Of a stretch of 64,000 bases of DNA, positions 6,246-29,727 are shown piece by piece; within the stretch, counting starts at the first letter, position 1; each line of letters starts with the position of its first letter. The notes below the pieces were generated by a model. That model did not search any database. It had not been told where the DNA came from and saw only the letters and a list, made by a program, of their open reading frames with translations. Both the position numbers and the translations under genes were made by a program. This DNA is from Candidatus Desulfosporosinus nitrosoreducens (GTDB lineage Bacteria; Bacillota; Desulfitobacteriia; Desulfitobacteriales; Desulfitobacteriaceae), in NCBI RefSeq assembly GCF_030954495.1, contig NZ_JAVHUW010000082.1, forward strand, positions 173,108 through 237,107, written 5' to 3'.

Positions 6246-6782
6246 ATGGGCATTTATATTTCCACCAAAAGACTTAAGATAAGGCAATTCAGTCCGGATG
6301 ATGCAAATCAATTGTATAAAATTTGTAATCAACCATACATTCTTAAATGGATGCCTGACTGGGAAACATCATTAGATGACATTGAACGTTGGATTAGCCA
6401 AAAAGAAAAACGGTATTCCCAGTGGACTAAAGATAACGTAAGAATTATGCTCGCGGTTACACTTGAAAAGGACGGTAAAGTTATAGGGATGGTTGGAATT
6501 GGCAATAAGGTAGAAGTAGACAATGAGGTGGAAATAGCGTACTTCATTTCCGAAGAGTATAGTAATCAAGGATATATGAGTGAAGCCGCAAAAGCTATGA
6601 CAAAATGGGCATTTGATAATGTAAAGCTTGATTATCTGATTGCTATAGTTGAACCGGATAATTCCGCATCACAGAAGGTTGTTGAAAGGTGTGGCTTTAA
6701 TAAAATCAAGGAAAGAATGATCCTCAATTCAGGCGAATCGGAAGAAAAACCTTTTTATTATTACAGGTTATATAATAGCTAG
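6246..6782 (+). CDS. GNAT-family acetyltransferase (RimJ/RimL-like)
   Basis: Contains YSNQGYMSEAAKAMTKWAFDN and the general GNAT fold pattern. Confidence 0.7.
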   Translation: MGIYISTKRLKIRQFSPDDANQLYKICNQPYILKWMPDWETSLDDIERWISQKEKRYSQWTKDNVRIMLAVTLEKDGKVIGMVGIGNKVEVDNEVEIAYFISEEYSNQGYMSEAAKAMTKWAFDNVKLDYLIAIVEPDNSASQKVVERCGFNKIKERMILNSGESEEKPFYYYRLYNS

Positions 6783-7174
6783 TTTATGCTGTTTTGTGCA
6801 GGTGGTTAGGGTTACCAGCACATTACAGGAATGGCTCCTTGAATAGTTAATAATCAAGAGCACCTTGGGCAGAAAAACCTGCTGGAGGACTCCCGGGCCT
6901 TGGAGTAATCCCTATAGATCTGTTTGGAATTTCTGGAAAAATGAACCCCACGGGTGCATAAAGTTGGAGCCAGCTTTTTTGGGGAGCCTCCCACAATGGG
7001 GTGGCTTTTTTTATGTGCCGGACACTGAAGGATAGAGGTTAGTGAAAGCAATAGATGTAATGCTCCAAAACTTGACTTGTATTCTAACATAATATACCAT
7101 TTGTTAAAGATAGTACGTACTTGTTTGACAGTACGTATCGGCAATAAAAATAATGTTTTCAAGGAGTTAGGTTT

Positions 7175-8647
7175 ATGAAGATATATAATGCTTATAGTAG
7201 AGAAAAGGAAGAGTTTGTACCCATTGAAAGTAATAAAGTAAAAATGTACGCTTGCGGTATAACTGTATATGATGATTGCCATATTGGACACGCACGGCAA
7301 GCGATTGTTTTTGATGTAATCAGTCAGTATTTAAGGCATAGAGGATATGATGTAACTTATGTAAGAAATTATACCGATGTAGATGACAAAATTATTGCAA
7401 GGGCTAATTCAGAAGGAATAAATGCATTAACCTATTCACAAAAAAAGATAGAAGAAGCAGAGTTGGATTTATCAACGCTGGGAGTTATTGATGCAGATAT
7501 AAAGCCCAAGGCATCGGATTATATAGAGAAGATTATAGATTTTATTGATGGTTTAATCAAGAAAGGTCATGCCTATGCCACAGAAAGAGGAGATGTTTAT
7601 TTCTCTGTAAGCAGTTTTAAGGAGTATGGGAAATTATCTAACAGGAATACTGAAGAGCTATTAAATGGCGTTAGAAAAGATGTAGAAGAAGGTAAAAAAA
7701 GTCCAATTGACTTTGCACTATGGAAATCTGCTAAAGTTGGAGAAATATATTGGGAAAGTCCATGGGGAAAAGGTAGACCAGGCTGGCATATTGAATGCTC
7801 AACTATGGTAATTGACACATTAGGAGAAAGCATAGATATACATGGTGGTGGCAAGGATTTGATTTTTCCCCATCACGAGAATGAAATTGCTCAAAGTGAA
7901 GCCTTTACAGGGAAACCATATACAAAATATTGGATTCACAATGGCTTGATTACAATTAATGGACAAAAAATGAGCAAATCACTTGGCAATTCAATGACAA
8001 TTAAGCAAGCTCTTGAGAAATATAATGCTGAAGTAATTAGATATGCAATGCTTGAAAAACATTATTCTACCGCTATAGATTTGAATGAAAAAGTATTTTC
8101 ATTAGCTGAAAAGCAACTTTACTACTTTTATAATACTCTGTTAAAAATAAATGAATTCCTGAAAAGCAATGACAATAGTAACGGAAAGGCTATTGAACCT
8201 TCAATTGTTGAAAATATTCAAAAGAGCTTTAATGACTCGATGGATGACGATTTCAATACTACCACAGCTATCTCGGACTTATTCTCTATTTGCAAGTATA
8301 TTAACTCACTAATTATTAACAAGAAATTTGCTAAAGAGGATATTTCTATGACACTATCTCAGATTAAAGACAAGTTAGTTCAAGTATTTTCAGTAATCGG
8401 GTTATTGAACGAGAATCCGCAAGAATTTGTCGATGAACTTAGGAATAAGCATTTAAAGATATTAGGAATTTCTGCAGAGGACATTGAAGATATAATTCTG
8501 CAAAGAGCTAATTCAAAAGCTGATAAAAACTATGAAGTTGCTGATAAATTAAGAAACAATTTATTGGACCAAGGCATTATACTCAATGACAGCAAATATG
8601 GAACAAGCTGGGATATTAAAGAGTTGTATAGTATAGGAAATGAGTAA
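7175..8647 (+). CDS. cysS: cysteine--tRNA ligase
   Basis: Class I aaRS HIGH motif (CHIGHAR) and KMSKS motif (KMSKSLGN). The length and overall sequence are typical of CysRS. Confidence 0.95.
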   Translation: MKIYNAYSREKEEFVPIESNKVKMYACGITVYDDCHIGHARQAIVFDVISQYLRHRGYDVTYVRNYTDVDDKIIARANSEGINALTYSQKKIEEAELDLSTLGVIDADIKPKASDYIEKIIDFIDGLIKKGHAYATERGDVYFSVSSFKEYGKLSNRNTEELLNGVRKDVEEGKKSPIDFALWKSAKVGEIYWESPWGKGRPGWHIECSTMVIDTLGESIDIHGGGKDLIFPHHENEIAQSEAFTGKPYTKYWIHNGLITINGQKMSKSLGNSMTIKQALEKYNAEVIRYAMLEKHYSTAIDLNEKVFSLAEKQLYYFYNTLLKINEFLKSNDNSNGKAIEPSIVENIQKSFNDSMDDDFNTTTAISDLFSICKYINSLIINKKFAKEDISMTLSQIKDKLVQVFSVIGLLNENPQEFVDELRNKHLKILGISAEDIEDIILQRANSKADKNYEVADKLRNNLLDQGIILNDSKYGTSWDIKELYSIGNE

Positions 8648-8759
8648 ATTAGCTCAATAGTATTTTTGTTTAAAAGGGATTTTAAATAGTTTATATAAAT
8701 TATATAAAAGTGACAAAATTAAGCACTTTAAGAATCGTTAATATAATTAAGTAAGATAA

Positions 8760-8843
8760 GTGCTGGCAGGCTCATGAGCAGGACTAAGGCAAAACAAAGT
8801 TTTACCGTTTCGGACTTTAAAAAACAGATGAAGGATGTCTACA
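8760..8843 (+). pseudogene. 84-bp internal fragment of rtcB (encodes ..AGRLMSRTKAKQSFTVSDFKKQMKDVY..), identical to the resident rtcB at 27880-27963
   Basis: Direct comparison with the reverse complement of 27880-27963 gives an exact match. Identity stops abruptly at 8843/8844, where the GC-rich DNA begins. Confidence 0.8.
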
Positions 8844-9254
8844 TCCCGGCGGCTTGGACATCCCGGCGGATTCTGCACGCCGGCGAATAAGGAGCATAGC
8901 GGACGGATAGGCGGTGGACGTGCCAATGCCTATGAGAATTCGCGCTACGGCCAGCATAGTCAAGTCACGTCCAAACCCACCCAACAAACCTCCCCAAAGT
9001 ACCATAAGAATTCCAGCCAGAAATACCCGGCGGGGCCCGAATTCCGCTGAAAGCTTTCCGGCGGTGGGCTGTGCGATCGAGCAGGCCAGATAAAGCGCCG
9101 TCACCAGAATTGTGGTTTGAGCTACTGAAACATGCATATAGGCAGCGATGGGTACGAGCGCAGTGGCAATCATCGAGCTGTTGACGGGATTAAGCGTGGA
9201 CCCCATGTACAGAGGCGCCACGAACCTCCAAGAGAATGGGTTGCCACCTGTCAT
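8817..9254 (-). pseudogene. MFS transporter, N-terminal fragment only (truncated)
   Basis: The first TM helices of an MFS transporter are present (GILMVLWGGLLGGFG, ILIGIGTSTAYP), but the ORF ends after about 145 aa at the island junction. GC-rich. Confidence 0.55.
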
Positions 9255-9261
9255 GATTGGT

Positions 9262-9834
9262 TCACTCCTTGGTCATTGAGTCTAATCCGCCGATCCAATC
9301 GTCGACGGTCAGCACATCCGCCTGACGAGGGAAGACCTTCTCCATGAGCACGCGATGAACTTCAGGATCAGCATCAATGCAGGCGTCCGAAAGCACTTTG
9401 ATTGTAAAATCCTTGTCCGCTGCTTCCCGCAGGGTTGACAACACGACTCCGCTCGTGGCAATGCCGGTGAGAATTAAAGTGTCAATTTGTTTCGCCCGAA
9501 GGATAACTTCCAAATTGCTTCCGGCGAAGGCGCTAACCCGATACTTCGTAACGACCGGTTCACCATTCATTGGTTGTACCGATTCATGGATTTGAGTTAC
9601 ATGATCCGATACTGTCATGCCGCCAAATTGAGCAATTTGCGAGAAAGACTTGTTTTTGGGACTTACCTCCGGGTATCCTTCACTAAAAGCAACCCGTACG
9701 AAGATGACCGGGATGTTGTAGCGCCGCGCTGTTTCCACTGATTTTTGAAACGGGAGCAACAATTCAGGATTGGCTTGAAAACGGGATACGATTCCATTCT
9801 GCATGTCCATGACCAGAAGTGAGGGCTTGCTCAT
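9262..9834 (-). CDS. isochorismatase-family cysteine hydrolase
   Basis: MSKPSLLVMDMQNGIV.. and the catalytic-Cys context (LTGIATSGVV) are typical of isochorismatase-like hydrolases. GC-rich. Confidence 0.75.
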   Translation of the reverse strand: MSKPSLLVMDMQNGIVSRFQANPELLLPFQKSVETARRYNIPVIFVRVAFSEGYPEVSPKNKSFSQIAQFGGMTVSDHVTQIHESVQPMNGEPVVTKYRVSAFAGSNLEVILRAKQIDTLILTGIATSGVVLSTLREAADKDFTIKVLSDACIDADPEVHRVLMEKVFPRQADVLTVDDWIGGLDSMTKE

Positions 9835-9952
9835 ATGTTTTACACTCCTATCGTTTTACTATATAATAAGTGGGGAAGTCTCCACTTATTATAAACGGAG
9901 AAATCTCCACTTGTCAACGAGATTTACAATTTTACTATTGGGAGTGGAAGTC

Positions 9953-10540
9953 GTGAAGAGTAGGGAAGAAACCAAGGTGCGACAAGAACGCCGCGATGCT
10001 GCTGAAAATCGTCAGAGAATATTAGATGCGGCAATTAAGCTTTTTGCACAACAGGGTGTTAAGCAAGTCAGTATGAACCAAATTGCGCTGGAAGCTCAAA
10101 TTGGTTCGGGGACTCTTTACCGTCGTTATAAAAACAAAAGTGAGTTGTGTCTGGATTTAATTAAAGACAACATCTTGCTGCTCTTCGAGGACATTGATAG
10201 ATACTTGGAACAGCATCAGACCGCTACACCGCGTCAGCGTTTAAAAGGGGTGCTCAGCCTTTTTATGCGTTTTCGTGAGAAAAAACTTCAGTTGCTGGCA
10301 GGTGTTGAAGAGGGAGCACTAGAGAATAGTCACTTTAAGTTCAATCTGCAGGAAATCGTCGTTCAGCTGCTCGCGGAGATGAACAGAGACGAACATACCG
10401 AAGCGAACACTGTGTTTAAGGCCGATATGTTATTGGTGGCTTTAAGAAGTGATTCTTATATATTTCAGAGAGATGTGCGCGGGTATTCGTCCGAATCGTT
10501 TTTGGAGCAAATTTTCTTGACATTTTTTCCGGAGAGATAA
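9953..10540 (+). CDS. TetR/AcrR-family transcriptional regulator
   Basis: HTH region ILDAAIKLFAQQGVKQVSMNQIALEAQIGSGTLYRRYKNK. A GTG start with a GGAG RBS was chosen because the upstream ATG overlaps the divergent isochorismatase gene. Two tctccactt half-sites lie in the divergent promoter (9862-9912). Confidence 0.75.
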   Translation: MKSREETKVRQERRDAAENRQRILDAAIKLFAQQGVKQVSMNQIALEAQIGSGTLYRRYKNKSELCLDLIKDNILLLFEDIDRYLEQHQTATPRQRLKGVLSLFMRFREKKLQLLAGVEEGALENSHFKFNLQEIVVQLLAEMNRDEHTEANTVFKADMLLVALRSDSYIFQRDVRGYSSESFLEQIFLTFFPER

Positions 10541-10854
10541 CTAGTCTTGAGGCGAATACGATCGAAGGCACATGCCCGCTAATTTTTTGCCATATTTGCG
10601 CCGGACACAATGACTTCCTCCGGCCCCATGAGAATGAAGAAAAAATTAATAGATTTTAAAAAAATGTAGAAAAAATACATTTATTACAGTATAATATTCT
10701 TATAAGTGAATATAAAATATTTTCATAAAATATAATTGCTCCATTAAGGACAAGCTGAGCTGCCTAATAAGTATTGAAGTATTTGTTAGACTTAAACAAG
10801 GAGTTGTAACCATTGGGGATAGACGGTAAGAAAGAGATAAATTTTGAAGTTGCC

Positions 10855-11688
10855 ATGAGAGAAAATTATGATTTACTGACGAATATAGAAAAGAAAATCG
10901 TTGACTATATAATTAAAAATGAATCTGAGATTATTTGGTACACTCTCACTGATTTGGCTGAAAAAATAAGAGCAAGTGAAGCAGCCATAATTAGAACATG
11001 TAAGAAGCTGGGTTATACCGGATTTCAAGAATTTAAAATAAATATGGCCCTTTCTAAAATACATTCGCTTACTAAAGTAGAAAACGAAATAAAAGATATT
11101 GATAACGATGGCAGCATAAAAACGTTATCCGAAAAAGTCCGGCAAATGCATATTATTGCTATAAATGAGGTTTTTGCGAATCTTAACCATACAGAAATAG
11201 AAAACATTGCTAAGAAGTTGCTGGAAGCCAGATTTATTAATTTGTTTGCTTTTGGAGGAACATTGCCAATTGCTGTGGATCTGAATTATAAACTCTTCAG
11301 AATGGGCTTATCTTCTGCTGTCATTGTTGATCAACGAGAGCAGAGAATGAAAGCAGCATTAGCGAAACCTGGGGATGTTTTTTGGGGATTCAACTTTTCA
11401 GGTATGGGGGCTAACCTTTATGATATTCTGCTGTTAGCTCGCGAAAATGGGGCTACAATAATCTCCCTAACCAGCAATAAAAATTCACCTGTGGCTAAAA
11501 TAAGTGATTATAAACTTTTGGGTGTAAATAATTGTGAAACCCTATTTACTGGAACAACGGATCGTTTAACTCAACTCGCCATTATCGATGTTCTCTTTTT
11601 GTATATTATTAACTTAAATAGCGGTGAGATTAGGTCAGCATTGGAAAAGACTCTAAATATTATTGCAGCTGATCAAAATAAGAGATAA
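10855..11688 (+). CDS. RpiR/MurR-family transcriptional regulator (HTH + SIS domain)
   Basis: N-terminal HTH_6 pattern (LTNIEKKIVDYIIKN..YTLTDLAEKIRASEAAIIRTCKKLGYTGFQEFK) and a C-terminal SIS phosphosugar-binding pattern. An alternative upstream TTG start lies at 10813. Confidence 0.75.
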   Translation: MRENYDLLTNIEKKIVDYIIKNESEIIWYTLTDLAEKIRASEAAIIRTCKKLGYTGFQEFKINMALSKIHSLTKVENEIKDIDNDGSIKTLSEKVRQMHIIAINEVFANLNHTEIENIAKKLLEARFINLFAFGGTLPIAVDLNYKLFRMGLSSAVIVDQREQRMKAALAKPGDVFWGFNFSGMGANLYDILLLARENGATIISLTSNKNSPVAKISDYKLLGVNNCETLFTGTTDRLTQLAIIDVLFLYIINLNSGEIRSALEKTLNIIAADQNKR

Positions 11689-11965
11689 GTATATTGAGAA
11701 TTCAATTTTAATTAGGACTTTTTCCAGACAAAAATTTTTTAAAATTTTTAGAAGAAATAATTCATTTTTTATTATTATATTGGAGATAAAATTCTCATAG
11801 AAATAACTTATTGTGGTCTCTAGTTTCCTTAAAGAAATTAATAATTTCCGGATGGGGAACTTCAGTAAATAACCTAAAGGTGGTGGTAATCGGAACAATT
11901 GAATTAAATTGTCAGATGGTACAAATAGCAGTTACTTGTCACCCTCATTAATGAATTTAAGGATA

Positions 11966-12140
11966 GAAAAAAACGGAAAGGTCCGCCAATGATCCAAGTT
12001 TATCCGCTGACTAATCCGCTCTAAGACTCCCGCTTCGGCAAGCGGTGAGTTAAGAGCGGGCTAAGTCCCTGGATAAGTGCGACTAAGATTCAGATGGAGT
12101 TAAAACCCCACCTGAATCAAGTCTTCTTTAATTGGAACGT
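11966..12140 (-). repeat. copy 1 of an ~180-nt structured repeat / sRNA candidate (three hairpins plus an intrinsic terminator), transcribed leftward
   Basis: 85-90% identical to 53372-53565 and 61178-61350 in reverse orientation. Ends with cggacctttccg followed by ttttttt on the minus strand. Confidence 0.6.
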
Positions 12141-12310
12141 CTTAAGACAAAACATGTTTATTTTCTTCTCTGTGATTTATTATTTTGTGTGGTAACGTTG
12201 TTTCAAAGCCGAGGAAAATATAAAAGCCTAACGGGTGAAAAGTTAGGCGAATCAACAATTGTGAGATTTCGCAATTGCTTATAGATTAATAAACAAAGGA
12301 GGAGTAAGAA

Positions 12311-13738
12311 ATGTCAAATTCAAATTATCTTGATGAAGTTAAGAACACACCCGCAGATGAAATGATGAGCATAGGTAAATTGTCTGTTTTGGGATTACAA
12401 CAGGTGTTGGCAATGTTCGCAAGCTCAATTGCAATTCCGATTATTGTTTCGGGAGCATTAAAATTGCCTTTAAACGTGATGGCTATTTTGATTGCTTCAT
12501 CATGTTTTGCAACTGGTATATGCACTGCTTTTCAATCGATTGGTTTAAAAAGATATTTAGGCATAAGATTACCCATTGTTTTAGGGTGTGGTATGGCATC
12601 TGTAGCACCAATTTTGCTCATAATTAATAATCTCTCATCTAATATCGCCGGAGGCGGCTCGGGCCTTTCAATTGATCAATCTGTGGCATTAAGAACTGTT
12701 TTTGGTGCCACAATTATAGCTGGTATAGTTGCTTTTTTAGTTGCTCCTATACTTGGAAGACTGTCTTCATTGTTTTCCAAAATTGTTATAGGGTGCTTAC
12801 TATTAACGGTCGGTTCATCATTATTTAATGCTGCATTAAACAATATAGTTGGAGTTCCTAATACACCTAGTTATGGTAATGCCCAAAATATTTGGATAGC
12901 TCTTATTACATTACTGGCAATTGTGTTACTATATAGATTCGTAAATCAAAAATTAAGAAGTGTCGCTATATTGTTCGGGATATTAATTGGCTTTGTAGTG
13001 TCTATCTTTGCTGGAATTGTAAATTTTGCTCCTGTAATTAATGCCGGATGGATTGGATTGCCTCAGCCTTTCAAATTTGGAGCCCCTATTTTCACAAACA
13101 TTAACGCCGATCTCTTGCTTATAATTGTTTCCTTAATCAACTCAATCGAAGCTATCGGCTGTTTCAGTGTAGTATCAAACTTATGCGGATCACCTATGCC
13201 GACTAAAAGAATGATTAGTGGTTTAAGAGCAGAAGGTATATGTGTTGCATTTTCAGGTATGTTTAATTCTTTCTCCCTAACATCATTTTCTTCAAATATA
13301 GGAATTTTATTGCTGTCAGGAATACGCTCAAGATGGACAACTTTCGTAGGCGGTATTATTTTAGTAGCCTTTGGATTAATTCCTAAAACAGCAGCTTTTA
13401 TTACTATAATCCCAAGTTGTGTGCTTGGCGCAGGTATTTTAGCAATTTGTGGCTCCGTTTTGGTAGCTGGCATTATCAATTTAAAACAAGTTAATTTAGA
13501 TTATTATGGAAACGTAATAACCATAGCTATCTCTGTAGGAGTAGGTGTTGCATTTAATGGAAAACAAGCAGCTTTATCACAGATGCCAACTTTTGTGAAA
13601 GATATTTTGCCAGGTGGTGTAATATGTACAGTGATTATTGCTGTGTTGCTTAACTTGCTCTTCAATTTTAAAGAAATAAAGGAAAATTTTAAAGCATTAA
13701 ATGCAAAAGAAAAATTAAGCGTGGAAAAAGCTATCTAA
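12311..13738 (+). CDS. nucleobase:cation symporter-2 (NCS2) family permease (xanthine/uracil/purine permease)
   Basis: About 12 TM helices and an NCS2-like sequence pattern throughout. Has a GGAG RBS. Confidence 0.75.
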   Translation: MSNSNYLDEVKNTPADEMMSIGKLSVLGLQQVLAMFASSIAIPIIVSGALKLPLNVMAILIASSCFATGICTAFQSIGLKRYLGIRLPIVLGCGMASVAPILLIINNLSSNIAGGGSGLSIDQSVALRTVFGATIIAGIVAFLVAPILGRLSSLFSKIVIGCLLLTVGSSLFNAALNNIVGVPNTPSYGNAQNIWIALITLLAIVLLYRFVNQKLRSVAILFGILIGFVVSIFAGIVNFAPVINAGWIGLPQPFKFGAPIFTNINADLLLIIVSLINSIEAIGCFSVVSNLCGSPMPTKRMISGLRAEGICVAFSGMFNSFSLTSFSSNIGILLLSGIRSRWTTFVGGIILVAFGLIPKTAAFITIIPSCVLGAGILAICGSVLVAGIINLKQVNLDYYGNVITIAISVGVGVAFNGKQAALSQMPTFVKDILPGGVICTVIIAVLLNLLFNFKEIKENFKALNAKEKLSVEKAI

Positions 13739-13927
13739 AGATAAGTACCTCTCGAAAAGGATTTTGCTGCCCCTTTGGAAATCACAGATAAAGGAATTCT
13801 TTAAAGGGTTGTTGTGGAGTTTGCTTGTTTGGTCACTTCTGAATTCCCACAAAATCCTAATGAATTCCTTTTTGTTTCGGGGTGTTTTGAGACAAAAGTT
13901 CCTTAGTTTTTCAGGGGAATATGGGTA

Positions 13928-14701
13928 ATGGGGGTTGCAATGAATACTATTATTGTTGTTAATATCATAATCGGATTCTTACTTGGAAGTACAAGTGTTT
14001 CTGGATTTTTACTTCCAATATTTTATCATGAAAGCTTAAAATTGAACGCTTCCGCTACCCTTTCAGTCAGCTTTTTTGTTTTTTTTATTGCAGGGATTAT
14101 TGCTTCGTATATTTATTATAAAAAAGGTGATTTAGACTTAAAATTGTCATGTGTGATGGGAATTGGAAGTTTTGTTGGGGCTATCATAGGAGTTTTCTTA
14201 AATTCGCTTATTCCTGAACGTATAGTTATAGTAATATTATATGTTGTTGTTCTTCTATCAGGAATATCTATTATTGTAAGAACATACACAAGTCCTAAAA
14301 GCCAAAGAAATGATTCACCTAATAAGATATTATCAAACAATATATTTGTTGTAACCTTTGGTTTATTAACAAGCATAATATGTTCATTTTCCGGAGCAGG
14401 TGGTCCAGTTTTAGTTATGCCGTTATTGGTTGCGTTAGGGTTAAATGCTCGTGTTGCCATTGGAGTTGCGTTGTTTGATTCAGTATTTATCGCGCTTCCG
14501 GCTTTTGTAGGATATACATTAAAATCCAATACCCATTCAATTATGTATTTGTTTATCTTAAGTAGTATAGCTCTTTCTATTGGAGTAGTATCCGGAAGTC
14601 TCGTTGTAAATAAAATTCCTCAAAAACCATTAAAATTAGCAATTGCAATATTTCCGATTGCAATTGCTATATGGAAACTATTTCAACTTCAAAAGGGGTA
14701 G
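13928..14701 (+). CDS. TauE/SafE (DUF81) family sulfite-exporter-like membrane protein
   Basis: Two 4-TM repeats with the pattern GAGGPVLVMPLLVALGLNARVAIGVALF typical of DUF81. Confidence 0.65.
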   Translation: MGVAMNTIIVVNIIIGFLLGSTSVSGFLLPIFYHESLKLNASATLSVSFFVFFIAGIIASYIYYKKGDLDLKLSCVMGIGSFVGAIIGVFLNSLIPERIVIVILYVVVLLSGISIIVRTYTSPKSQRNDSPNKILSNNIFVVTFGLLTSIICSFSGAGGPVLVMPLLVALGLNARVAIGVALFDSVFIALPAFVGYTLKSNTHSIMYLFILSSIALSIGVVSGSLVVNKIPQKPLKLAIAIFPIAIAIWKLFQLQKG

Positions 14702-14706
14702 AAAAT

Positions 14707-16020
14707 ATGAACTGTGATATCTTAATTAAGAATACAAGTTTTTTAAACGAAAATTTTGCTATTGTAAAAGGTAAAAATATTGCCATAAATAATGGGAAAA
14801 TCGAATCAATATTTGATTGCCTGGAAAACGACTATACATCTGATAATTTTATAGACGGTAAAGATATTGTATGGATGCCAGGTCTGGTTGATGGACACTT
14901 GCATACAAGCCAACAACTTTTAAGAGGTAGACTATTAGATGAACGTCCTGTTATTTGGAAAAGAATAAACATTCCTCACGAAAGCAAATTGACGGAGGAA
15001 GGATCAGAATTAAGTTCCAAAATTGCAGCTTTGGAAATGATTAAAAGCGGAACAACTGGTTTTGTAGATATTGGCGGCAAATATGTTGAAAACTTTGCAT
15101 CTGTTTACGAAAAGTCTGGTTTACGTTGTGCACTCACATATATGACAAATGACAATCCCTTTGCCCCAGAATCATTAAGAACTACTGTAACAGAAGGAAT
15201 AGATAGGCTTATCGATCTCTACAATAAGTATGAAAATAAACATAAGCGAATGAAAGTCTTTTTTTCGGTACCTTCATTAACAGTAGCATCTGAAGAAATG
15301 ATAACAGCGGTTTTTTCTGAAGCAAAAAAAAGAGATATCCCTGTTGAAACGCATATGAATGAATATAGCAGTGAAGTATTTGAGTTTATAGAAAAATATC
15401 AACTAAGACCATTTGAATATTTGGAGAAAAATAATCTAATTGGGAAGTTTATAGCAGCACATTGTATTTTTCTTTCTGAAACAGAAATCGAAATAATTAA
15501 AAATCACGATGTTAAAGTTATACATTGTCCATTTAGTAATAGTGCTAAAGGAGTGCCAAGAACACCGCAATTACTTGCTAATAATATATCTGTAGGATTT
15601 GGCACAGATGGTAGCGGTCATGGTGGATTAGATTTATTTAAAGATATGAGATTATTCAGAGGAATTATGAATGCGGTTATTGGAACAGGAAGTGCCGATT
15701 ATCAAATTATGCCATCAAAAACTCTTTTAAAAATTGCCACCCAAGGTGGATCAAATTCCTTGTTTTCAGACAATATCGGCAAACTTAAAGAAGGCTACTT
15801 TGCTGATTTGATAGGTATTGATTTGATGCAGCCACATATTTACCCAACGCAAAATTTAGTTAATTCACTGGTTGAAAGTGTTTGCGGAAATGATGTAAAG
15901 CATATGATTGTACATGGTAATTTGATTATGAAAAACCGGGAAATCGTAACGATGGATGAAGAAAAAATATTATATGAAATGAAAAAGTTTATTGAGGATG
16001 GCAAATTAGAGGTGTTTTAA
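14707..16020 (+). CDS. amidohydrolase-family deaminase/chlorohydrolase (guanine/cytosine/MTA-deaminase-like)
   Basis: Metal-binding MPGLVDGHLHTSQQLLRG (HxH), later HCPFSN and GTDGSG motifs. A start at 14707 with an AAGGGG RBS was chosen to avoid overlap. Confidence 0.75.
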   Translation: MNCDILIKNTSFLNENFAIVKGKNIAINNGKIESIFDCLENDYTSDNFIDGKDIVWMPGLVDGHLHTSQQLLRGRLLDERPVIWKRINIPHESKLTEEGSELSSKIAALEMIKSGTTGFVDIGGKYVENFASVYEKSGLRCALTYMTNDNPFAPESLRTTVTEGIDRLIDLYNKYENKHKRMKVFFSVPSLTVASEEMITAVFSEAKKRDIPVETHMNEYSSEVFEFIEKYQLRPFEYLEKNNLIGKFIAAHCIFLSETEIEIIKNHDVKVIHCPFSNSAKGVPRTPQLLANNISVGFGTDGSGHGGLDLFKDMRLFRGIMNAVIGTGSADYQIMPSKTLLKIATQGGSNSLFSDNIGKLKEGYFADLIGIDLMQPHIYPTQNLVNSLVESVCGNDVKHMIVHGNLIMKNREIVTMDEEKILYEMKKFIEDGKLEVF

Positions 16021-16145
16021 TAGGAAAGCGAGAAAAGACTAGCCAATAATTTTTGTTTTCAGATGACCAATTCAAAAGGCTGATTCCCAAAACAGTATAA
16101 ATAAGCACATCAAATACGTTGCAAGTGAAGGATTTTTTAATAACG

Positions 16146-16195
16146 ATAAATTCGCCCAGATTTTCATTGGCTGAAGATCTGGGCGAATTTTTATG
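16146..16195. terminator. bidirectional rho-independent terminator (13-bp perfect stem)
   Basis: aattcgcccagat..atctgggcgaatt followed by ttttt. Confidence 0.65.
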
Positions 16196-16612
16196 TCAGT
16201 TTTTATGTCAGGCTATTTTTCCACCGCTTATCACTAAAAAACATAGGCATACGCAGGTTTGAGGGGATATTGATCCAAGATTAATTTCAATTTCGAAATA
16301 AAGGAGTTTTCTACCTGATTATTTAATAGAAACTGAAATCAATTAGACACTCTATTATACGTCTAGATAAGGTTTAACAATGGCCGCGGTTTTGCGGTTT
16401 AAATATTTTTACTAAATTTTGCCCCCAAAAATCTTAATTTGGTGAGCCTGTTTACGGAATTGAGTCAAGAAGTTGTTCATGTGGACTTGTAATTCTGAGA
16501 TTTTCATAACCATATTTATTTTATAAATCAACAATAATTTTGTCAGATAATTACTTGTTCTTTCGTATTAGAAAGTGAGAAGTTTCTTAACTGAAAAGAG
16601 GGAGGTTAAAGG

Positions 16613-17173
16613 GTGGAATTAAATGAAACTAACTTTATCCTGAAAATGAAAAAGAGAGAGAGTAGGGCTTTGGAATTTGTAGTTGACAGTTATAGCAATC
16701 TGGTTTTTAAAGTTGTACGTAGTGTTTTGAATACAAGTTTCTACTCTCAACATATTGAAGAATGTGTTAATGAAGTTTTTTGGTCAGTGTGGAACAATAT
16801 TCAAAGTTTTGACGAGAGTAAAGGTAATTTTAAATATTGGATTACTGCGGTAACGAAATACAAAGCGATTGACTTCAAAAGAAAGCTATTGAAACTAAAT
16901 ACTACGGAATGTATTCATGATTTTACTTTCTCTAACGAAGAAAGTACGGAAAACATAGTAATTTCCAAGGAAAACAGAGAAGAACTATTAATGGCAATAT
17001 CTGATATGAAAGATGAGGATCGAGAAATATTCATCAGAAGATATTTCTTGTTTGAAGAAATTGAAAGTATAGCTAAAACCTTTCATGTTGATAGAAATTT
17101 AGTTGATAAAAGGCTTTCAAGAGGACGCAAGTTTTTAAAAGGAAAGCTTATTTCTTTGAAAGGAGAGATATAA
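16613..17173 (+). CDS. RNA polymerase sigma-70 factor, ECF subfamily
   Basis: Region 2 (..YWITAVTKYKAIDFKRK) and a region-4 HTH (DREIFIRRYFLFEEIESIAKTFHVDRNLVDKRLSRGRKFL). Confidence 0.8.
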   Translation: MELNETNFILKMKKRESRALEFVVDSYSNLVFKVVRSVLNTSFYSQHIEECVNEVFWSVWNNIQSFDESKGNFKYWITAVTKYKAIDFKRKLLKLNTTECIHDFTFSNEESTENIVISKENREELLMAISDMKDEDREIFIRRYFLFEEIESIAKTFHVDRNLVDKRLSRGRKFLKGKLISLKGEI

Positions 17174-17174
17174 G

Positions 17175-18620
17175 ATGAATTACAAAGATTTTAATCTTGA
17201 GGAAAAAGATATCTTTAAGTTATTTAATCAAGTAAGCTTTGAGGAAAACGAAAGTGAGTTAAATGATCTAGATTGTGATGAAATATCACAGTTTCAAAAA
17301 GAAAAGATTAAAAAACATTTAAATAAAAGGATTAAAGGCAATTTTAGTTTGAGATTATTTAAATATTGTTCTACGGCGGTTGCCGTTGGGTTAGTGTGCT
17401 TAATTGGAATCGGCACAGCTTATCCTGCCTTTGCAGAAAATGTTCCTATCTTGAACTCGATCAGCCAAGCTCTTAATAGCCAATTTGGATATCAGGGAAA
17501 TTATGCTGAATACTCTCAAATGATCAATAAAAGTGTAACGGATAATGGGATAACAGTAACAATAAATGAAGCCCTTGCGGATAATTCAAAATTGATTATA
17601 GGATATACAATAAAAAGTGCTAAAAAAATTAATGATTTAGAGGTACTAGGGATTTCCAGATTCTTAAAGATAAATGGAAAAGTTGTTTCAGGAGAAGGCA
17701 GTGGTATGGGGAATTATCAAGACGACAATACTTATGTGGGCAGTGAAGAATTTCACACTAACTTGCCCCAAAACTCAGATAGATTTAATGTCGATTTTGA
17801 TATCAATGACATCAAGGGCATAAAAGGGAAATGGGATTTTGCCTTCAGTGTGTCTAAGGACGAATTAACTAAACATAGCACTGTATTTAACCCTGAAAAA
17901 GTAGTTGATTTTCCAGATAGTAAGGTGACTATCGACAAAGTAGTCTTTTCACCAATTGATACAGCTATTTTGCTCAGCGGAAATTATACGGATAAAAATA
18001 GACAATTAAAAGATAGTATCTTTGATTATAATTACTGGCTCGCTTTTGATGATGAGGGAGTAGAGCTAATACCGAAAGGTATTGGCGGAGGAAGCAGTAA
18101 CTTAACAACGCAGACTTTCCACAGTGAAATGGATTATGAGACTATGAAAAATATACCTAAATATTTAACCATTGTGCCCTGTAAGATTATCCCTTCAGCC
18201 GGAGGCGGTGTGAAGATGGATGCGGATGGTAAGGAAGCAAAGCAAAATGTTGAAACTGAGAAGCCTGTAGAAATAAACAAAGTAATTGATGGAGTATATC
18301 CTATTGAACTTCCCCAAGGTGGATTTGGGAAGCTGATTATTAATGAAATCAATACAGAAAATGACACTACCACTATTAATTTCACAGCAGAAGGTAAAGC
18401 CCCTTATTTTCAGGCAACTGAATTTTTTCTCAAAGATAATACTGGGGAAATATTGATCCCTAAAACCTATGTTAAACGGAAAGACAAACAGAACCCCAAC
18501 GAATTCACAATTGCTTTTACAGCATTAGATCCAAACAAGAAATATACTGTTAGCACAACAGCGCTAAATAATGTGGAATTGAGAGAAGATTTGAAATTTA
18601 AGATTGAGCTAAACAACTAA
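17175..18620 (+). CDS. anti-sigma factor-like membrane protein (DUF4179-like), cognate to the upstream ECF sigma
   Basis: Translationally coupled to the sigma gene (ATAAGATG overlap). One TM helix (VAVGLVCLIGIGTAYPAFA) followed by a large extracytoplasmic domain. Confidence 0.6.
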   Translation: MNYKDFNLEEKDIFKLFNQVSFEENESELNDLDCDEISQFQKEKIKKHLNKRIKGNFSLRLFKYCSTAVAVGLVCLIGIGTAYPAFAENVPILNSISQALNSQFGYQGNYAEYSQMINKSVTDNGITVTINEALADNSKLIIGYTIKSAKKINDLEVLGISRFLKINGKVVSGEGSGMGNYQDDNTYVGSEEFHTNLPQNSDRFNVDFDINDIKGIKGKWDFAFSVSKDELTKHSTVFNPEKVVDFPDSKVTIDKVVFSPIDTAILLSGNYTDKNRQLKDSIFDYNYWLAFDDEGVELIPKGIGGGSSNLTTQTFHSEMDYETMKNIPKYLTIVPCKIIPSAGGGVKMDADGKEAKQNVETEKPVEINKVIDGVYPIELPQGGFGKLIINEINTENDTTTINFTAEGKAPYFQATEFFLKDNTGEILIPKTYVKRKDKQNPNEFTIAFTALDPNKKYTVSTTALNNVELREDLKFKIELNN

Positions 18621-19006
18621 CGGTTAAAATCGAAAAATTGGTAAAAGCATCAACCACTGAGGTCAAGGGATGTAAAAATCTCGTTGACCTAACGATTACG
18701 GATACTTAAGTCCGATCCTCATGTTGGATGGGTCCTGATGCAAAAAAGTTCTAGTAATGTAGATACAGATTTGGATCGATTAGAGAACAGTCAAGATGAA
18801 CAATTAATGTGCTTGCAAAGTCGATGTTTTGGCAACTCCAGACACTTCGATGTGACATCATTGTTATTTCAATACGGTAACATCAACCCATGCGTTACTT
18901 CTATTGAAGGTTTATGTAATAAAAAATAGACCAAGAATCCCTGGAGGAGACATATCATATAAGCCTGCCAAGGATTCTTGGTTATTATAATCCTCGATAG
19001 AGAGAA

Positions 19007-19378
19007 TTATTTTACTGCAGGGATAATCTCCAGCCAATAATTATCCGGATCATTAATGAAGTAGATGCCCATTTCTTTATTCTCGTAGCAGATGCAGCCC
19101 ATAGTCTTATGGTGTGCATAGGCGGCCTCAAAATCATTGACCTTAAAAGCTAGGTGGAATTCATTTTCTCCTAAGTTATAGGGTGTAGTTCTTTCCTTTA
19201 ACCAGGTTAGCTCTAAGCTGTGGGGAGTGACCCCGTCGCCGAGATAAACGAGAATAAAGTTGCCATCCGGCTGCCGGTACCTTTTCACCTCTTTCAGGCC
19301 TAGGGCTTCCTTGTAGAACTCTAGGCTTTTTTCCAGATTAAGGACATTGAGGTTGTTATGGTCAAAGCGAAACTCCAT
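19007..19378 (-). CDS. glyoxalase/bleomycin-resistance/VOC-family protein (lactoylglutathione-lyase-like)
   Basis: N-terminus FDHNNLNVLNLEKSLEFYKEALGLK and length typical of glyoxalase I. Preceded downstream by a 10-bp-stem terminator at 18930-18985. Confidence 0.75.
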   Translation of the reverse strand: MEFRFDHNNLNVLNLEKSLEFYKEALGLKEVKRYRQPDGNFILVYLGDGVTPHSLELTWLKERTTPYNLGENEFHLAFKVNDFEAAYAHHKTMGCICYENKEMGIYFINDPDNYWLEIIPAVK

Positions 19379-19461
19379 GTAAAATCTTCCTCCTCTACTA
19401 AGTGTTTTCTTCCGCTAGACTAATTTTCCAGTATCCATAATTATTGTATAATCGTTAAGAG

Positions 19462-20166
19462 GTGATAACAATGGAGACACCAACGATTCGAATTAAATAT
19501 TTATATCACAGTGGTTTTCTGGTGGAAACGGATCTGCATCTGCTGATATTTGATTATTATCAAGGTGCTGTTCAACCAATAATTAAAGAAAGTCCCAAAA
19601 AGATTGTGGTTTTTTGTTACCACAGCCACCCCGACCATTATAATCCGGCGATTCTGGAATGGCAAAAGGATCGAGTGGATATTCAGGATGTCTTTAGTCG
19701 GGAAAATATCATTTCCCAATCAGCCAAAAACATCAATTATCTGTCGCCTTATGAGGAACTGGAACTGGGTGACCTAAAAGTTAAGGCCTTTAATTCTACG
19801 GATATCGGCGTTTCATTTCTGGTCCAAGCGGATGGGATGCGCATCTTTCATGCCGGAGATCTGAATTGGTGGTATTGGATTGATACTCCGGAGGAGATGG
19901 CTAAAGCTGAACGAGATTTTAAGGCTGAGGTCCAACACCTGAAGGGAGAGATCATAGATATTGCCTTCTTCCCCGTGGACCCAAGGCTGGAGGAAAACTA
20001 CGGTGCAGGGGGTGAGTACTTCATCCGGGAGCTTAAACCGAAGATTTTTGTTCCCATGCACTTCGGGGACAGTCCTGAAATCACAAGGAGATTCAGGGAA
20101 AAAATGCAAGGCTCCCTAACTAGGATTGCTGAACTAACCCAGATAGGGCAGGAGTTAGTAATTTAA
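19462..20166 (+). CDS. MBL-fold metallo-hydrolase
   Basis: Contains the H-x-H-x-D-H motif (YHSHPDHYNP). Confidence 0.7.
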   Translation: MITMETPTIRIKYLYHSGFLVETDLHLLIFDYYQGAVQPIIKESPKKIVVFCYHSHPDHYNPAILEWQKDRVDIQDVFSRENIISQSAKNINYLSPYEELELGDLKVKAFNSTDIGVSFLVQADGMRIFHAGDLNWWYWIDTPEEMAKAERDFKAEVQHLKGEIIDIAFFPVDPRLEENYGAGGEYFIRELKPKIFVPMHFGDSPEITRRFREKMQGSLTRIAELTQIGQELVI

Positions 20167-20392
20167 CCTTAATAAAAGAAAGAGAGTGTGGTGGGCAATA
20201 CTGGTGGTTTTGCGTCTACTTTAATGTTATGAGATAATTAAGTTACGAGATAATTAAACCCAAAGGAAGTGGTGTAATGGGTAAAGTTATTGACGGGATA
20301 ACCTACGTGCATTCAGAGGAAGATAACTCTAGCAGTTCATTTATGGATACCTATTTTGTTACTGCAAATGAGTCGGGGCGGTTAAAGAAAAT

Positions 20393-20578
20393 GTGGACAT
20401 GGTTAACTCTAATCTTCTTTTTGATAGGATCAACCATATCAATCTTAAGTTTTTTATTGAGGTAAGTCGGCAATCTATCTGGTGGACCGATCCGGATAGG
20501 GAGCGCCAGTTGGTCGAACGACTTAGAAACCACGGCGTTGATGTTGTGCCAGATAAATGGGAACTTAAGGAAGGTTGA
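20393..20578 (+). pseudogene. TIR-domain N-terminal fragment (truncated, about 60 aa)
   Basis: KFFIEVSRQSIWW...LVERLRNHGVDVVPDKWELKEG matches the TIR opening pattern (hydrophobic-F-I-S-x-S...W...L..G..VW.DkW.ikpG). The ORF stops after 61 aa, and a competing overlapping frame is present. Confidence 0.35.
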
Positions 20579-20705
20579 GATAAATATACTTTCATGGAGC
20601 TTAAATACATATCCTGATGAATGCCCAAACGGAAGTGAAAAGAAGATAAAAAAACCGTTGCCTGTCTTGAGGTTACAGCCTTAACATTCCTTTCCCAAGA
20701 AGAGC

Positions 20706-20747
20706 CGGTTAAGGTTGTCCCAAAATCGACAACGTTGTCGATTTTGG
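20706..20747. repeat. perfect 42-bp palindrome (20-bp arms)
   Basis: ggttgtcccaaaatcgacaa cg ttgtcgattttgggacaacc. No U-tract. Lies immediately upstream of the transposase remnant. Confidence 0.6.
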
Positions 20748-20837
20748 GACAACCTCTGCATGGTTCTCACACTTCCGGGCTTAGTCACATATTCTGGAAA
20801 TATAGCGCTGAAATGGGCGGACAATAATATGAATGAT

Positions 20838-21100
20838 TTTACCTTAGATCGGATGCCACCTGTTATTGCGGTTGAAATAAACACGCTTAAATCCCGGACC
20901 GGAAAAATCCATTACACACCAAAACATGGGTAGCTGGTTGAATATTGTTGAAATTGAACTCGGCGTGATGACTCGTCAATGCTTGGGTCGTAGAATTCCG
21001 TCTTTAAAGCTCCTTCGTGATGAATTAACAGTATGGGAATCTACAAGGAATAACCCCAAAAAGGTGTTGATTGGCAATTTACAACTAATGCTGCACGAAT
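20838..21100 (+). mobile_element. IS630/Tc1-type DDE transposase, C-terminal remnant with a 1-nt frameshift (pseudogene)
   Basis: ..IHYTPKHG*/SWLNIVEIE.. is split between two frames and aligns to the IS630-family ...PxxSPxLNxIE... catalytic-E region. It continues QCLGRRIPSLKLLRDELTVWESTRNN. No N-terminal part is present. Confidence 0.5.
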
Positions 21101-21171
21101 TAAGCTTAAGCGACTCGATCCACAGTTTAAAAGTTGACAGTGTACTAGGCTGGTATGAGTGGGGGATAACA

Positions 21172-21546
21172 ATGAATATTATTGGCAATATTATTTGGCT
21201 TTTATGCGGCGGATTAATAGCTTGTATTGCCTGGTGTATTTCAGGACTGATTTTGTGCATTACGATTATCGGGATACCATTTGGCGTGCAATGTTTCAAG
21301 ATTGTGTTATTTGTATTGTGGCCCTTTGGAAAAGAGATAGAACTTGGCAACTTCGGAGCAGGGGGATTATTTTTAAATATAATATGGCTGATCGTTTTTG
21401 GCTGGGGGTTTGCTGTAGCTCATTTAATTATTGGTATACTTTTTTGTATAACGATTATCGGTATTCCGTTTGGACTCCAACATTTTAAATTTGCTAAACT
21501 TGGACTCATACCATTTGGGGCGAGAATTTACTATTCTGCAAACTGA
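21172..21546 (+). CDS. YccF-like inner membrane protein (DUF307)
   Basis: Duplicated motif ITIIGIPFG(V/L)Q.FK typical of YccF. The upstream in-frame extension to 20926 is transposase-remnant reading frame, not part of this gene. Confidence 0.7.
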   Translation: MNIIGNIIWLLCGGLIACIAWCISGLILCITIIGIPFGVQCFKIVLFVLWPFGKEIELGNFGAGGLFLNIIWLIVFGWGFAVAHLIIGILFCITIIGIPFGLQHFKFAKLGLIPFGARIYYSAN

Positions 21547-21735
21547 AACATCCTGTCACTCATCTATGTGAAATTATCATGTCTACCCGCGCCGCCAGAC
21601 TAACACAAGAAGAAATAGCCCGCCGCGTATAAAGGCTAGCTGGAGGTCGAGGGGTGTGAATAAGAAGATTGGTTGAGAAAAAGTTTACAAGATAACTTGA
21701 AAATAGTGACTTTCATTTCAAAGGAGGGGCAAAAA

Positions 21736-23307: not shown

Positions 23308-23383
23308 ACAGATTTCGTATTGAGAAACGGCTGAGCGACATAAAATGAGCGGTATAACGAATACCGCTCTGATTCTTGGGGAA

Positions 23384-23431: not shown

Positions 23432-23493
23432 CCGTTTGATTTTACCTTACCTTTAATAATAAATCTTAAACGATAAAATTATGGAGGTGCGGG

Positions 23494-26748: not shown

Positions 26749-27470
26749 TTATACGGAAAAAGTCAGATTTCCTGTGAGCTAAAGAATTTTCATCACGATA
26801 TAGCTTGATGCTGGAATGCCGAGATATAAGGCATCCCTGTTGCAAAACAAATTAAATTTATTGGCTCAAACGAGAGCAACTGTTTAGACGGTAGTTATTT
26901 AAATTATTATTTGAGTCCGATAATAGATATTATGTAAAGTAGAGTATAATTTTTGGCGGTTAGACTAAAATAGCCTGAAAATCCTGGTACGGATTTTTAC
27001 AAGCTGATTTATCCGTATCAGCGATTTTTTAAGCTTTCGGTATTTAATCCAATTATCAGTATTACATGTCGGTTAGATAAATTCAGTTGATAACTGCTAC
27101 TATTTTTGGCTTTCAAGTTTGATATCCTCTAGATTAAGCTCCAGTTTGGACATTACTATTCAATTGAACTCGTTTATAAGGTTTACGATAACCGTCATGA
27201 AAAACTAGCCTCTAGGAGCCTCTGTAAGGCTTTAGAAATTGATGCTTAATATGATTAGGCTAATCCAAGTAAACTATGGCTACAGGAGCCATTTAAAGTC
27301 TTGAATATTTATCGATATATACGAACGAGTCAGTTTTCAGGTGCTAAATTTGGAATTCTAAAAGATTCAATTGATGCTTTACTAATCGAATTACGTTTTT
27401 AATAGATATTTGAGCCATGTAATTAGCTCATTAGAGATATTGACCTAACGACATGCTTTATTAGCCTCTA

Positions 27471-27730: not shown

Positions 27731-28939
27731 TTAATACTCTTCTCCCGCCTTAAAGTTATAAATCGGTTTAATTACTTTCACAATATCTGCTGTCGGGCCA
27801 ATATGGTTTACGATGTCATCCATAGACTTATAAGCCATTGGACACTCATCCAATGTTTCTTTATTAACTGATGTCGTGTAGACATCCTTCATCTGTTTTT
27901 TAAAGTCCGAAACGGTAAAACTTTGTTTTGCCTTAGTCCTGCTCATGAGCCTGCCAGCACCATGAGGGGCAGAGCAGTTCCAATCCTCATTGCCTTTTCC
28001 TAAACAGATGAGACTACCATCCCTCATATTGATCGGAATTAAAAGTCTTTCTCCTTTCTTTGCGGACACGGCGCCTTTCCGTAAGATCATCGTGTCGGTA
28101 TCAATGTAATTATGAGTCGTAGTGAACTGTTCCGCTACGTCTAATTTCATGCCTTTCACGATCTCAGTAATCATTGCTTTACGGTTTAGCACCGCAAACT
28201 GCTGAACGATTTTCATATCATGAATATAATCCTCAAACAGACTCCCAGTTACATAAGCAAGAGGAAACGGAATTTCGGTCATTACCTGATTTTTAAATTC
28301 CTTTAATGCATTCTCTATTTCTTTATCACGGCCTTCAGACTTTAAGCGGACAATGAGTGCCTCCATATCTGATTTGCCATTATGGTTTAACTGCTTATAC
28401 CCGGCGTCCTGATAATATTTTGCCACCTCAAGTCCTAAGTGACGGCTCCCTGAATGAACTACAACATATAAGCTGCCCGCCTCATCCTTATTAACCTCAA
28501 TAAAATGATTGCCGCCACCCAATGTTCCAATACTTTTTTCTGCTCTGTCCAGTTGCACTGCTTTACGACAACGTAGCCCTGTTAAATCAATTTGCTCATT
28601 ATACCGATGCGGTGTCTTCCGCACCTCAAAACCTGACGGTATGTTCTCATAAATCAACTTATCTAACCTTTGCAGTTCCAGTCGTTTGTTGCTGATTGAG
28701 ATAGTTTCCATACCGCAGCCAATATCTACGCCCACTAAGTTAGGAACCACTTTATCCGTAATGGTCATCGTGGTTCCAATCGTGCAGCCGGCTCCAGCAT
28801 GCACATCCGGCATGACCCTGATTTTGCTTGCTTTTACAAACTCCTGGTTACAAAGGGTCTCAATCTGTGAAGCAGCTCCTTCTTCCAGAATATCGGTATA
28901 CACCTTTGCTATATTAAATTTCCCTTCTATTTGCAACAT
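27731..28939 (-). CDS. rtcB: RNA-splicing ligase RtcB (RtcB2-type, paired with PrfH)
   Basis: 402 aa with conserved RtcB motifs: GVDIGCGM, GGGNHFIEV, and HGAGR near the C-terminus. Sits directly downstream of the prfH homolog. Confidence 0.9.
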   Translation of the reverse strand: MLQIEGKFNIAKVYTDILEEGAASQIETLCNQEFVKASKIRVMPDVHAGAGCTIGTTMTITDKVVPNLVGVDIGCGMETISISNKRLELQRLDKLIYENIPSGFEVRKTPHRYNEQIDLTGLRCRKAVQLDRAEKSIGTLGGGNHFIEVNKDEAGSLYVVVHSGSRHLGLEVAKYYQDAGYKQLNHNGKSDMEALIVRLKSEGRDKEIENALKEFKNQVMTEIPFPLAYVTGSLFEDYIHDMKIVQQFAVLNRKAMITEIVKGMKLDVAEQFTTTHNYIDTDTMILRKGAVSAKKGERLLIPINMRDGSLICLGKGNEDWNCSAPHGAGRLMSRTKAKQSFTVSDFKKQMKDVYTTSVNKETLDECPMAYKSMDDIVNHIGPTADIVKVIKPIYNFKAGEEY

Positions 28940-29118: not shown

Positions 29119-29727
29119 TTATTGCTTAAGCTTAAACTCCTTACCTTCATAAACTCTCATGGGATTTCCTCTGGTAAGAAGATTGTGTTGCCTCCACATA
29201 GATTCTTTATGGTCACTGTTATTATCTTCGTTTTTTGTATTAATAAGGATTGACAATCGAGCAAGTGCCAGCTTTTTATTCATATATTGCGATCGTTCCT
29301 CACCTGCGGTTACCGTTAACCCAGTGGGAATATGAACCGCCCTGACAGCTGTTTCTACTTTATTTACATTTTGTCCACCCGGACCAGAACTTCTCATAGC
29401 AACAATCTTTACATCTTTTTCCGAAAAGTTGAACCTTTCAGCCGACTGATATACTTCAATATTAATAAACCAATTCTTTCTTCGATGGTTAGGCCTGTAT
29501 GGACTTTGACAAATCCAGAGGATTGTACCCTTCGTGTTGTCAGTATCACCCTTGAATTCATTTGCAGCGATGGATAAAAGAACAGATTTGTAGGTCCCGT
29601 TATAGCGTCCGGGTACTGCATCGATGACTCTTGTAGTTTTATTTTCCTTTAATATTTTTTGCAGAAAAAGACCGACTGCCAGTTCACATTCCTCGGGGCC
29701 TTTCCCTGAGCTAATTTGCATCCACAT
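29119..29727 (-). CDS. prfH: peptide chain release factor H (RF-H; release-factor homolog lacking the codon-recognition domain)
   Basis: 202 aa with the GGQ motif (SGPGGQNVNKVETAVR) and homology to the RF2 C-terminal half. Its size and pairing with rtcB are diagnostic of PrfH. Confidence 0.85.
   Translation of the reverse strand: MWMQISSGKGPEECELAVGLFLQKILKENKTTRVIDAVPGRYNGTYKSVLLSIAANEFKGDTDNTKGTILWICQSPYRPNHRRKNWFINIEVYQSAERFNFSEKDVKIVAMRSSGPGGQNVNKVETAVRAVHIPTGLTVTAGEERSQYMNKKLALARLSILINTKNEDNNSDHKESMWRQHNLLTRGNPMRVYEGKEFKLKQ

Follow-up and report, generated by a model that had tools for sequence, protein, structure and literature searches.

Templated (filler) insertions arise at the junctions left by double-strand-break repair, and 84 bp, the length that concerns us here, lies at or above the upper end of the reported lengths of such templated patches. 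The staggered-break model, described for Drosophila, yields inversions whose breakpoints carry inverted duplications, and Harms et al. reportedly described short-patch double illegitimate recombination in 2016. Homology-facilitated illegitimate recombination (HFIR), in which one end is guided by homology and the other is illegitimate, is a documented class, seen during transformation or conjugation in Acinetobacter baylyi, Streptococcus pneumoniae, Pseudomonas stutzeri, and Escherichia coli (PMC3240628, PMC6382021). In the 64,000 nucleotides analysed here (the window), a segment of 84 bp, hereafter the patch, joins a low-GC cysS cassette to a truncated MFS transporter gene and repeats part of the resident rtcB gene base for base (Table 1). 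On balance, this patch is probably the junction scar of a horizontal transfer of the cysS cassette into Desulfosporosinus sp. PR.

The locus resembles HFIR in that a foreign insert, with a cysS 98% identical in nucleotide sequence to that of a Clostridia lineage, stands without mobile-element machinery; in that one junction falls inside homology between donor and recipient, with the switch at the first alignable base; and in that resident DNA is deleted at the site. In HFIR the remaining junction is illegitimate, with 0-10 nt of microhomology; here the cassette's left end and the join of patch and MFS gene have no obvious microhomology against the SB140 proxy. However, experimental HFIR anchors are near-identical and at least ~100-200 bp long, whereas the identity is 57-62% here, with a longest run of 17 nt; moreover, HFIR places its insert at the anchor locus, whereas here it lies 19 kb off, in the MFS gene, with rtcB intact. 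Since the anchor is too divergent and the insert is away from the anchor locus, we call the event HFIR-like without assigning it to the class. A templated filler is likewise a short ectopic copy at a rearrangement junction with its source locus unchanged, but the register here seems dictated by a homologous incoming remnant rather than by a microhomology of a few bases. The short, gene-internal inverted duplication at both ends of a segment also recalls staggered-break inversion, from which the locus differs in its intact rtcB and in its setting at a bacterial terminus.

Table 1. Coordinates of the main features, counted from the first base of the window.
Feature	Coordinates	Strand	Remarks
cysS cassette	7025..8759	+	leader/promoter 7025-7174, cysS 7175-8647, 3' non-coding 8648-8759 (spacer 8674-8759)
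84-bp rtcB patch, resident (Desulfosporosinus-type) allele, sense orientation	8760..8843	+	100% identity to the reverse complement of 27877-27960
MFS transporter 5' fragment, 137 codons	8844..9254	-	Pfam MFS_1 profile positions 2-113 of 347
Isochorismatase-family cysteine hydrolase, intact	9262..9834	-	Pfam PF00857; 92% aa identity to SB140
TetR-family regulator, likely GTG start 9953	9953..10540	+	Pfam TetR_N; 195-aa homologue in L082
dif-like 28-mer GAGTCCGATAATAGATATTATGTAAAGT	26913..26940	+	at GC-skew maximum, between the arms, 0.9 kb from the rtcB arm
Resident full-length rtcB, intact	27731..28939	-	402-aa ORF, Pfam RtcB
prfH, partner gene upstream of rtcB (peptide chain release factor H)	29119..29727	-	NCBIfam TIGR03072

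The proteins of the window are exact matches of entries MDQ7096640-670, which belong to Candidatus D. nitrosoreducens (Desulfosporosinus sp. PR) and lie on a 321,015-bp contig, although exact-protein searches of a contig index with CysS, RtcB, and the hydrolase had no match; a scenario in which a low-GC Clostridia host imported an island and rtcB from Desulfosporosinus was rejected on this ground. The genome is a short-read MAG (MEGAHIT v1.2.9, NovaSeq) from a co-culture of two species that was sequenced very deeply (PMC11096178). Its resident RtcB is 88-95% identical in amino acids to Desulfosporosinus and Desulfitobacterium homologues and falls, at 90% or more, into one cluster with the proteins of D. 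meridiei, D. hippei, and others; PrfH scores 224.5 against a TIGR03072 cutoff of 166.65 and clusters with Desulfosporosinus PrfH proteins. By these matches, rtcB and prfH are typical Desulfosporosinus genes.

All 84 bases (84/84) of the patch, whose GC content is 42.9%, are the exact reverse complement of a source arm internal to the rtcB ORF, as had been claimed; the earlier note had rightly placed that second arm inside rtcB, at 27880-27963, which is 3 bp off the actual 27877-27960. The copy opens at base 2 of the Gly codon of HGAGR and encodes ..AGRLMSRTKAKQSFTVSDFKKQMKDVY.., the very peptide that had been reported. An exact 84-mer cannot have recurred by chance within 64 kb, and tblastn of the window found no rtcB-like fragment besides this copy and the full-length gene. 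Against rtcB of other Desulfosporosinus-type contigs the patch is 92.7% and 84% identical, matching the gene-wide values, and a metagenome scan with a 23-mer from the patch gave 0 matches. The zero divergence between the arms stands, but as 84 bp bounds divergence only to roughly <3.5% (Poisson estimate), it says little for the recent date that had been drawn from it. Identity terminates at 8843/8844, where GC rises rightward, again as first described; the steps are 31.8% in the cassette, 42.9% in the patch, and 48.1% in the next block, of which the first 500 bp reach 54%.

By BLAST, 7025-8794 is ~96% identical to six contigs (L086, L096-L100) of an uncultured low-GC Clostridia lineage, whose sources include the NCBI MAG GCA_964494355.1, two metagenomes from JGI (3300065779 and 3300065701), and one from an anaerobic digester. 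Nucleotide identity reaches 98.0% in cysS and 91% in the leader, and the 81% of the spacer is a caveat on the sampled contigs as donors. In these contigs cysS stands in a low-GC housekeeping context (rsgA, cysS, tRNA-Thr, merR, metG). Among the best 120 homologues listed, the closest CysS proteins are metagenomic (98, 93, 89, and 88% identity), the few named matches are all Clostridia/Clostridiales MAGs at 60-66%, and none carries a Desulfosporosinus label. Past either end of the cassette no donor-like DNA resumes. Judged from these sequence comparisons, we conclude that 7025-8759 (~1.7 kb) is imported DNA, and that cysS of strain PR (MDQ7096648.1) is a xenologue.

Around cysS, synteny across 80 genome loci showed nothing in common besides cysS itself, and among plasmids and phages the cassette had only remote cysS matches (65-72%) by distant blastn. 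A scan of metagenomes for the spacer motif gave one unrelated chance match (L101), and Rfam at gathering thresholds had no hit in 6600-8900, nor window-wide. Left of the cassette, 6783-7024 is a GC-richer, hairpin-rich, non-coding segment of 240 bp that ends in a terminator-like stem and a T-run. At the opposite side of the locus, 10543-10640 (95-100 bp, 50% GC) directly follows the tetR stop codon. Neither segment matched anything in the window, the compared loci, or Rfam.

The feature that carries our reading lies at the 3' side of the cassette. Behind the spacer, all six donor-lineage contigs (6/6) have an rtcB remnant, truncated at its 5' end but extending to the rtcB stop; this remnant is an intact ORF of 68 aa that matches Pfam RtcB and has 55.6% amino acid identity to the RtcB of the window. 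More distant cysS relatives (93% and 87% nt) have neither spacer nor remnant, and their homology stops at 8673-8682. Remnant and patch open at the same rtcB nucleotide (GATAA/G.., the slash marking the junction), the junction bases being ..AAGTAAAGATAA/GGGCGGGCAGA.. in the donor and ..AAGTAAGATAA/GTGCTGGCAGG.. in the window. Relative to the resident allele, the remnant is 57% identical in nucleotides over the 84 bp, with no identical run >6 nt there, and 62% identical over the next 132 bp; the sole long stretch of identity, GTCCAATGGCTTATAAG of 17 nt, is found 34 nt past the patch end. At the positions of these 84 that distinguish the two alleles, the patch has the resident state throughout (36/36).

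By our estimate, filler drawn at random from 5 Mb of genome would have a chance of ~10^-7 of hitting this register to the base; homology with the incoming remnant, or descent from it, therefore set the left boundary of the patch. Since the patch is purely resident-type, resident rtcB would have replaced the donor sequence up to the heterology border. The earlier note had held that the insertion of an island created this boundary, which instead matches the source-lineage remnant at the same nucleotide; it had also named relatives carrying the fragment here with no island as evidence against its own account, and what we found is a modified form of this, the donor-lineage remnant. Because the patch occupies the exact place of a broken rtcB remnant in the source lineage of the cassette, we read it as the scar of a single recombination event rather than a new system, and it has no evident function.

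The remnant itself (L086 3606-3812; L096 4491-4697; likewise in L097-L100) opens with an ATG, has a purine-rich stretch upstream, and encodes an identical protein in the six contigs, which come from different samples. Beside the cassette, no 5' part of rtcB was found in the window or in the donor contigs. Att-like repeats, an integrase, an intron, or an intein behind the shared breakpoint were rejected, there being no repeats and no adjoining 5' part of rtcB; furthermore, NCBIfam models of intein-containing RtcB put the intein elsewhere in the protein.

The DNA to the right of the patch had been taken for an inserted, GC-rich island. The segment 8844-10540 (1697 bp) gives an uninterrupted alignment at 89.8% nt identity with the chromosome of Desulfosporosinus sp. 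SB140 (D. paludis), beginning exactly at 8844 and stopping at the tetR stop codon, and is 87.9% identical to a Logan contig (L082); megablast found no match to the block among plasmids. At 56-61 kb, a native beta-oxidation operon reaches 51% GC, so high GC is no sign of foreignness in this genome. By similarity, then, the GC-rich block belongs to Desulfosporosinus, as do rtcB and the surrounding backbone, and it is the cysS cassette that was imported. Insertion of the MFS-hydrolase-tetR block as an island, with a random piece of rtcB captured as filler at its left junction, is accordingly quite unlikely, as the block is 88-90% identical in nucleotides to SB140 and L082, native operons here are normally GC-rich, foreign origin is demonstrable for the cassette, and the base-exact register would be an accident of about 1 in 10^7. 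What speaks for that account is that the block is short (1.7 kb), begins within a gene and ends at a stop codon before ~95 bp of 50%-GC DNA, that the hydrolase has 85% aa homologues in high-GC Alicyclobacillus, which makes an older acquisition within the genus possible, and that one genome does not reveal which side was inserted into which.

The gene content past the junction was largely as first described, with an isochorismatase hydrolase and a TetR regulator; the MFS gene, in contrast to the 5' truncation then reported, is truncated at its 3' end, since its N-terminal 137 codons are kept and the truncated 3' end faces the fragment. This MFS fragment is 91-92% identical in amino acids to that of SB140, the alignment ending at 8844, and the remaining ~70% (3') of the gene is absent from the window. 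The ORF extends into the patch to a stop at 8817, so that the junction gives it a tail of 9 codons (8 aa and the stop); the junction-spanning 145-aa ORF is MDQ7096649.1. Judged against SB140 as a proxy for the pre-insertion sequence, neither 7024/7025 nor 8843/8844 has obvious microhomology. Between the divergent hydrolase gene and tetR lie an operator-like palindrome (9862-9893) and promoter-like sites.

Some incidental features accompany this region. The joining of patch and MFS gene makes a 6+6 palindrome, GGATGT-CT-ACATCC (8832-8847), which scores as a terminator-like hairpin on the minus strand, and a 12-nt direct repeat, ACATCCCGGCGG (8841-8852 and 8858-8869), whose second copy is native MFS sequence. 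At 10543-10640, homology to both SB140 and L082 has ended. In SB140 itself (L081 7296-7858, 8581-9968) the homologous tetR is split into 60+113 aa and the MFS gene into 55+403 aa, and both are probably pseudogenes, as each is divided into two ORFs; an IS91-family transposase lies 2.2 kb from this split region.

The earlier remark that hallmarks of mobile elements are absent holds. No recombinase or transposase was found among the ORFs of at least 120 aa scanned in 1-32.6 kb; the window has no tRNA, 7025-10640 is not flanked by repeats, and no plasmid or phage matched closely. A genomic island or integrative mobile element was rejected, as these scans yielded no integrase, transposase, recombinase, att-type repeats, or tRNA target. 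A shufflon-type invertible gene end was likewise set aside, no recombinase having been found among the scanned ORFs, the arms lying 19 kb apart, and the sequence behind the arm being antisense MFS, which would append 13 codons and a stop rather than another C-terminus for RtcB; so was a diversity-generating retroelement, as the repeats are 100% identical and no scanned ORF has an RT domain.

In the sequence of events that we consider probable, a cysS cassette of ~1.7 kb would have arrived from an uncultured low-GC Clostridia lineage carrying cysS, the spacer, and an rtcB pseudogene. When the cassette arrived, or afterwards, the donor remnant would have paired in register with resident rtcB, the pairing probably nucleating at the 17-nt identical stretch further 3' in the remnant, and resident sequence would have replaced donor sequence up to the homology boundary. 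This could have happened by a heteroduplex or Holliday junction driven to the heterology border and resolved there, or by annealing of a resident-derived strand to the donor strand with removal of the non-homologous tail. The right end, 84 bp into the remnant, would then have been joined with essentially no microhomology into codon 137 of the resident MFS gene, a join that deletes the 3' 70% of that gene and looks like end joining. Resident rtcB would have been left intact, the outcome being an 84-bp inverted repeat with its copies 19 kb apart around a dif-like site.

Remnant and resident rtcB do align in register, and the window is resident-type from the first alignable base; from this we infer the pairing, replacement, and joining steps. 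Several points count against this explanation. Transformation of B. subtilis collapses above ~15% divergence, and in vitro a 77-bp region with ~54% divergence halts RecA-mediated strand exchange (PMC6382021); the 57-62% identity between remnant and resident gene is far below the normal tolerance of RecA. The product lacks the 17-nt nucleation site, which calls for a further step of trimming or joining. Moreover, no relative of strain PR without the cassette was found.

The position of the repeat at the putative terminus bears on the main rival. Cumulative GC skew reaches its maximum at ~27 kb, gene orientation converges there, and the two inverted arms lie 19 kb apart on either side of the dif-like site. 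The 28-mer GAGTCCGATAATAGATATTATGTAAAGT has 7 mismatches to what we take to be the B. subtilis dif sequence, with its ATTATGTAAA arm intact. It is held in a 1-kb AT-rich stretch without ORFs (26749-27730), which is probably the replication terminus. Terminus-including inversions preserve gene-strand bias. A 19-kb segment containing the dif-like site might have inverted and then re-inverted, the breaks in rtcB being staggered by 84 nt: the first flip would split rtcB into overlapping halves, giving cysS, the spacer, and the rtcB 3' end, and recombination between the 84-bp copies would then restore rtcB. We regard this double inversion as unlikely, though less so than the other alternatives. The arms are inverted and bracket the skew maximum and the dif-like site, the gene-strand bias would be kept, an in silico flip of 8844-27876 gives the spacer plus the rtcB 3' end to the stop, which is the donor-lineage layout, and the blunt junction between patch and MFS gene suits end joining. 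Yet two rearrangements are required, a second, restoring inversion having to be assumed because rtcB is intact in the present arrangement; the first break must hit the first base of the donor remnant, so that homology guidance is needed all the same; and there is no sequence trace of the flipped state.

Assembly error, whether as false joins by MEGAHIT or as one path through a polymorphic repeat, seems very unlikely. Neither flank of the patch is that of the authentic rtcB, so an artefact would take two false joins made independently, and the donor-type remnant and resident rtcB share no k-mer >17 nt, and none >6 nt within the patch, so that a de Bruijn graph could not have crossed between them. 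The largest default k of MEGAHIT (99-141) exceeds 84. Desulfosporosinus-type DNA flanks the 1.7-kb cassette on both sides, and coverage is very deep. What speaks for an artefact is that this is a short-read metagenome assembly and that trace Clostridia amplicons were detected in the co-culture at its ninth transfer (PMC11096178). The claim, made at the outset, that the fragment is a copy of resident rtcB at a genuine recombination junction holds. It is also very unlikely that the cassette integrated with its own 84-bp remnant at the MFS join, to be converted later by resident rtcB: the identity does fill exactly the stretch between two heterology borders, as a homology-limited tract would, but 84 bp at 57% identity, with no run >6 nt, is no plausible RecA-dependent substrate (PMC6382021).

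Other repeats in the window deserve a brief record. A family of REP-like intergenic palindromes, CCAAATTCGAATGCGCATTCGAATTTGG, occurs at 2719-2759, 20707-20747, and 23385-23425, on both sides of the cassette, and is common to D. paludis SB140 (L081 10556-10696, 12102-12160). A hairpin-rich repeat of ~125 nt has three copies, 83-97% alike (11999-12130, inverted; 53393-53506; 61179-61310), located just upstream of, and oriented with, a xanthine/uracil permease gene, a 227-aa ORF, and an enoyl-CoA hydratase operon; it matches no Rfam family and may represent a MITE-like element or else a leader or regulatory region common to these genes. Three tandem 38-bp repeats (39757-39877), 82-89% alike and each with an inverted repeat, lie between the divergent genes 39002-39724 (-) and 39900-40793 (+) and have an operator-like look. 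In addition, paired segments of 78-116 nt, 86-94% alike and 6.2-6.9 kb apart (42871-42986/49118-49232; 44380-44457/51300-51377), suggest a partly duplicated gene cluster.

In brief, the kind of event preferred here, a horizontal-transfer junction with a templated patch, is known; what appears unusual is its very legible anatomy, in which an incoming pseudogene fragment seemingly dictated the junction. More speculatively, and with little probability in our view, the pseudogene fragment of rtcB, a very widely conserved gene, might have served as a portable homology tag by which a cysS gene passed from another Firmicutes order or class into Desulfosporosinus in spite of ~40% divergence, and the 84-bp repeat could now flip the terminus, switching rtcB off and on. 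The locus also illustrates that a jump in base composition can indicate the wrong side of a junction, and the bracketing of the putative dif site by an 84-bp inverted repeat matters for assembly finishing and genome stability. It would, moreover, be a clean natural example of a single foreign gene fixed in a bacterial chromosome without mobile-element machinery, with all three sources, the donor, the resident template, and the target gene, identifiable to the base.
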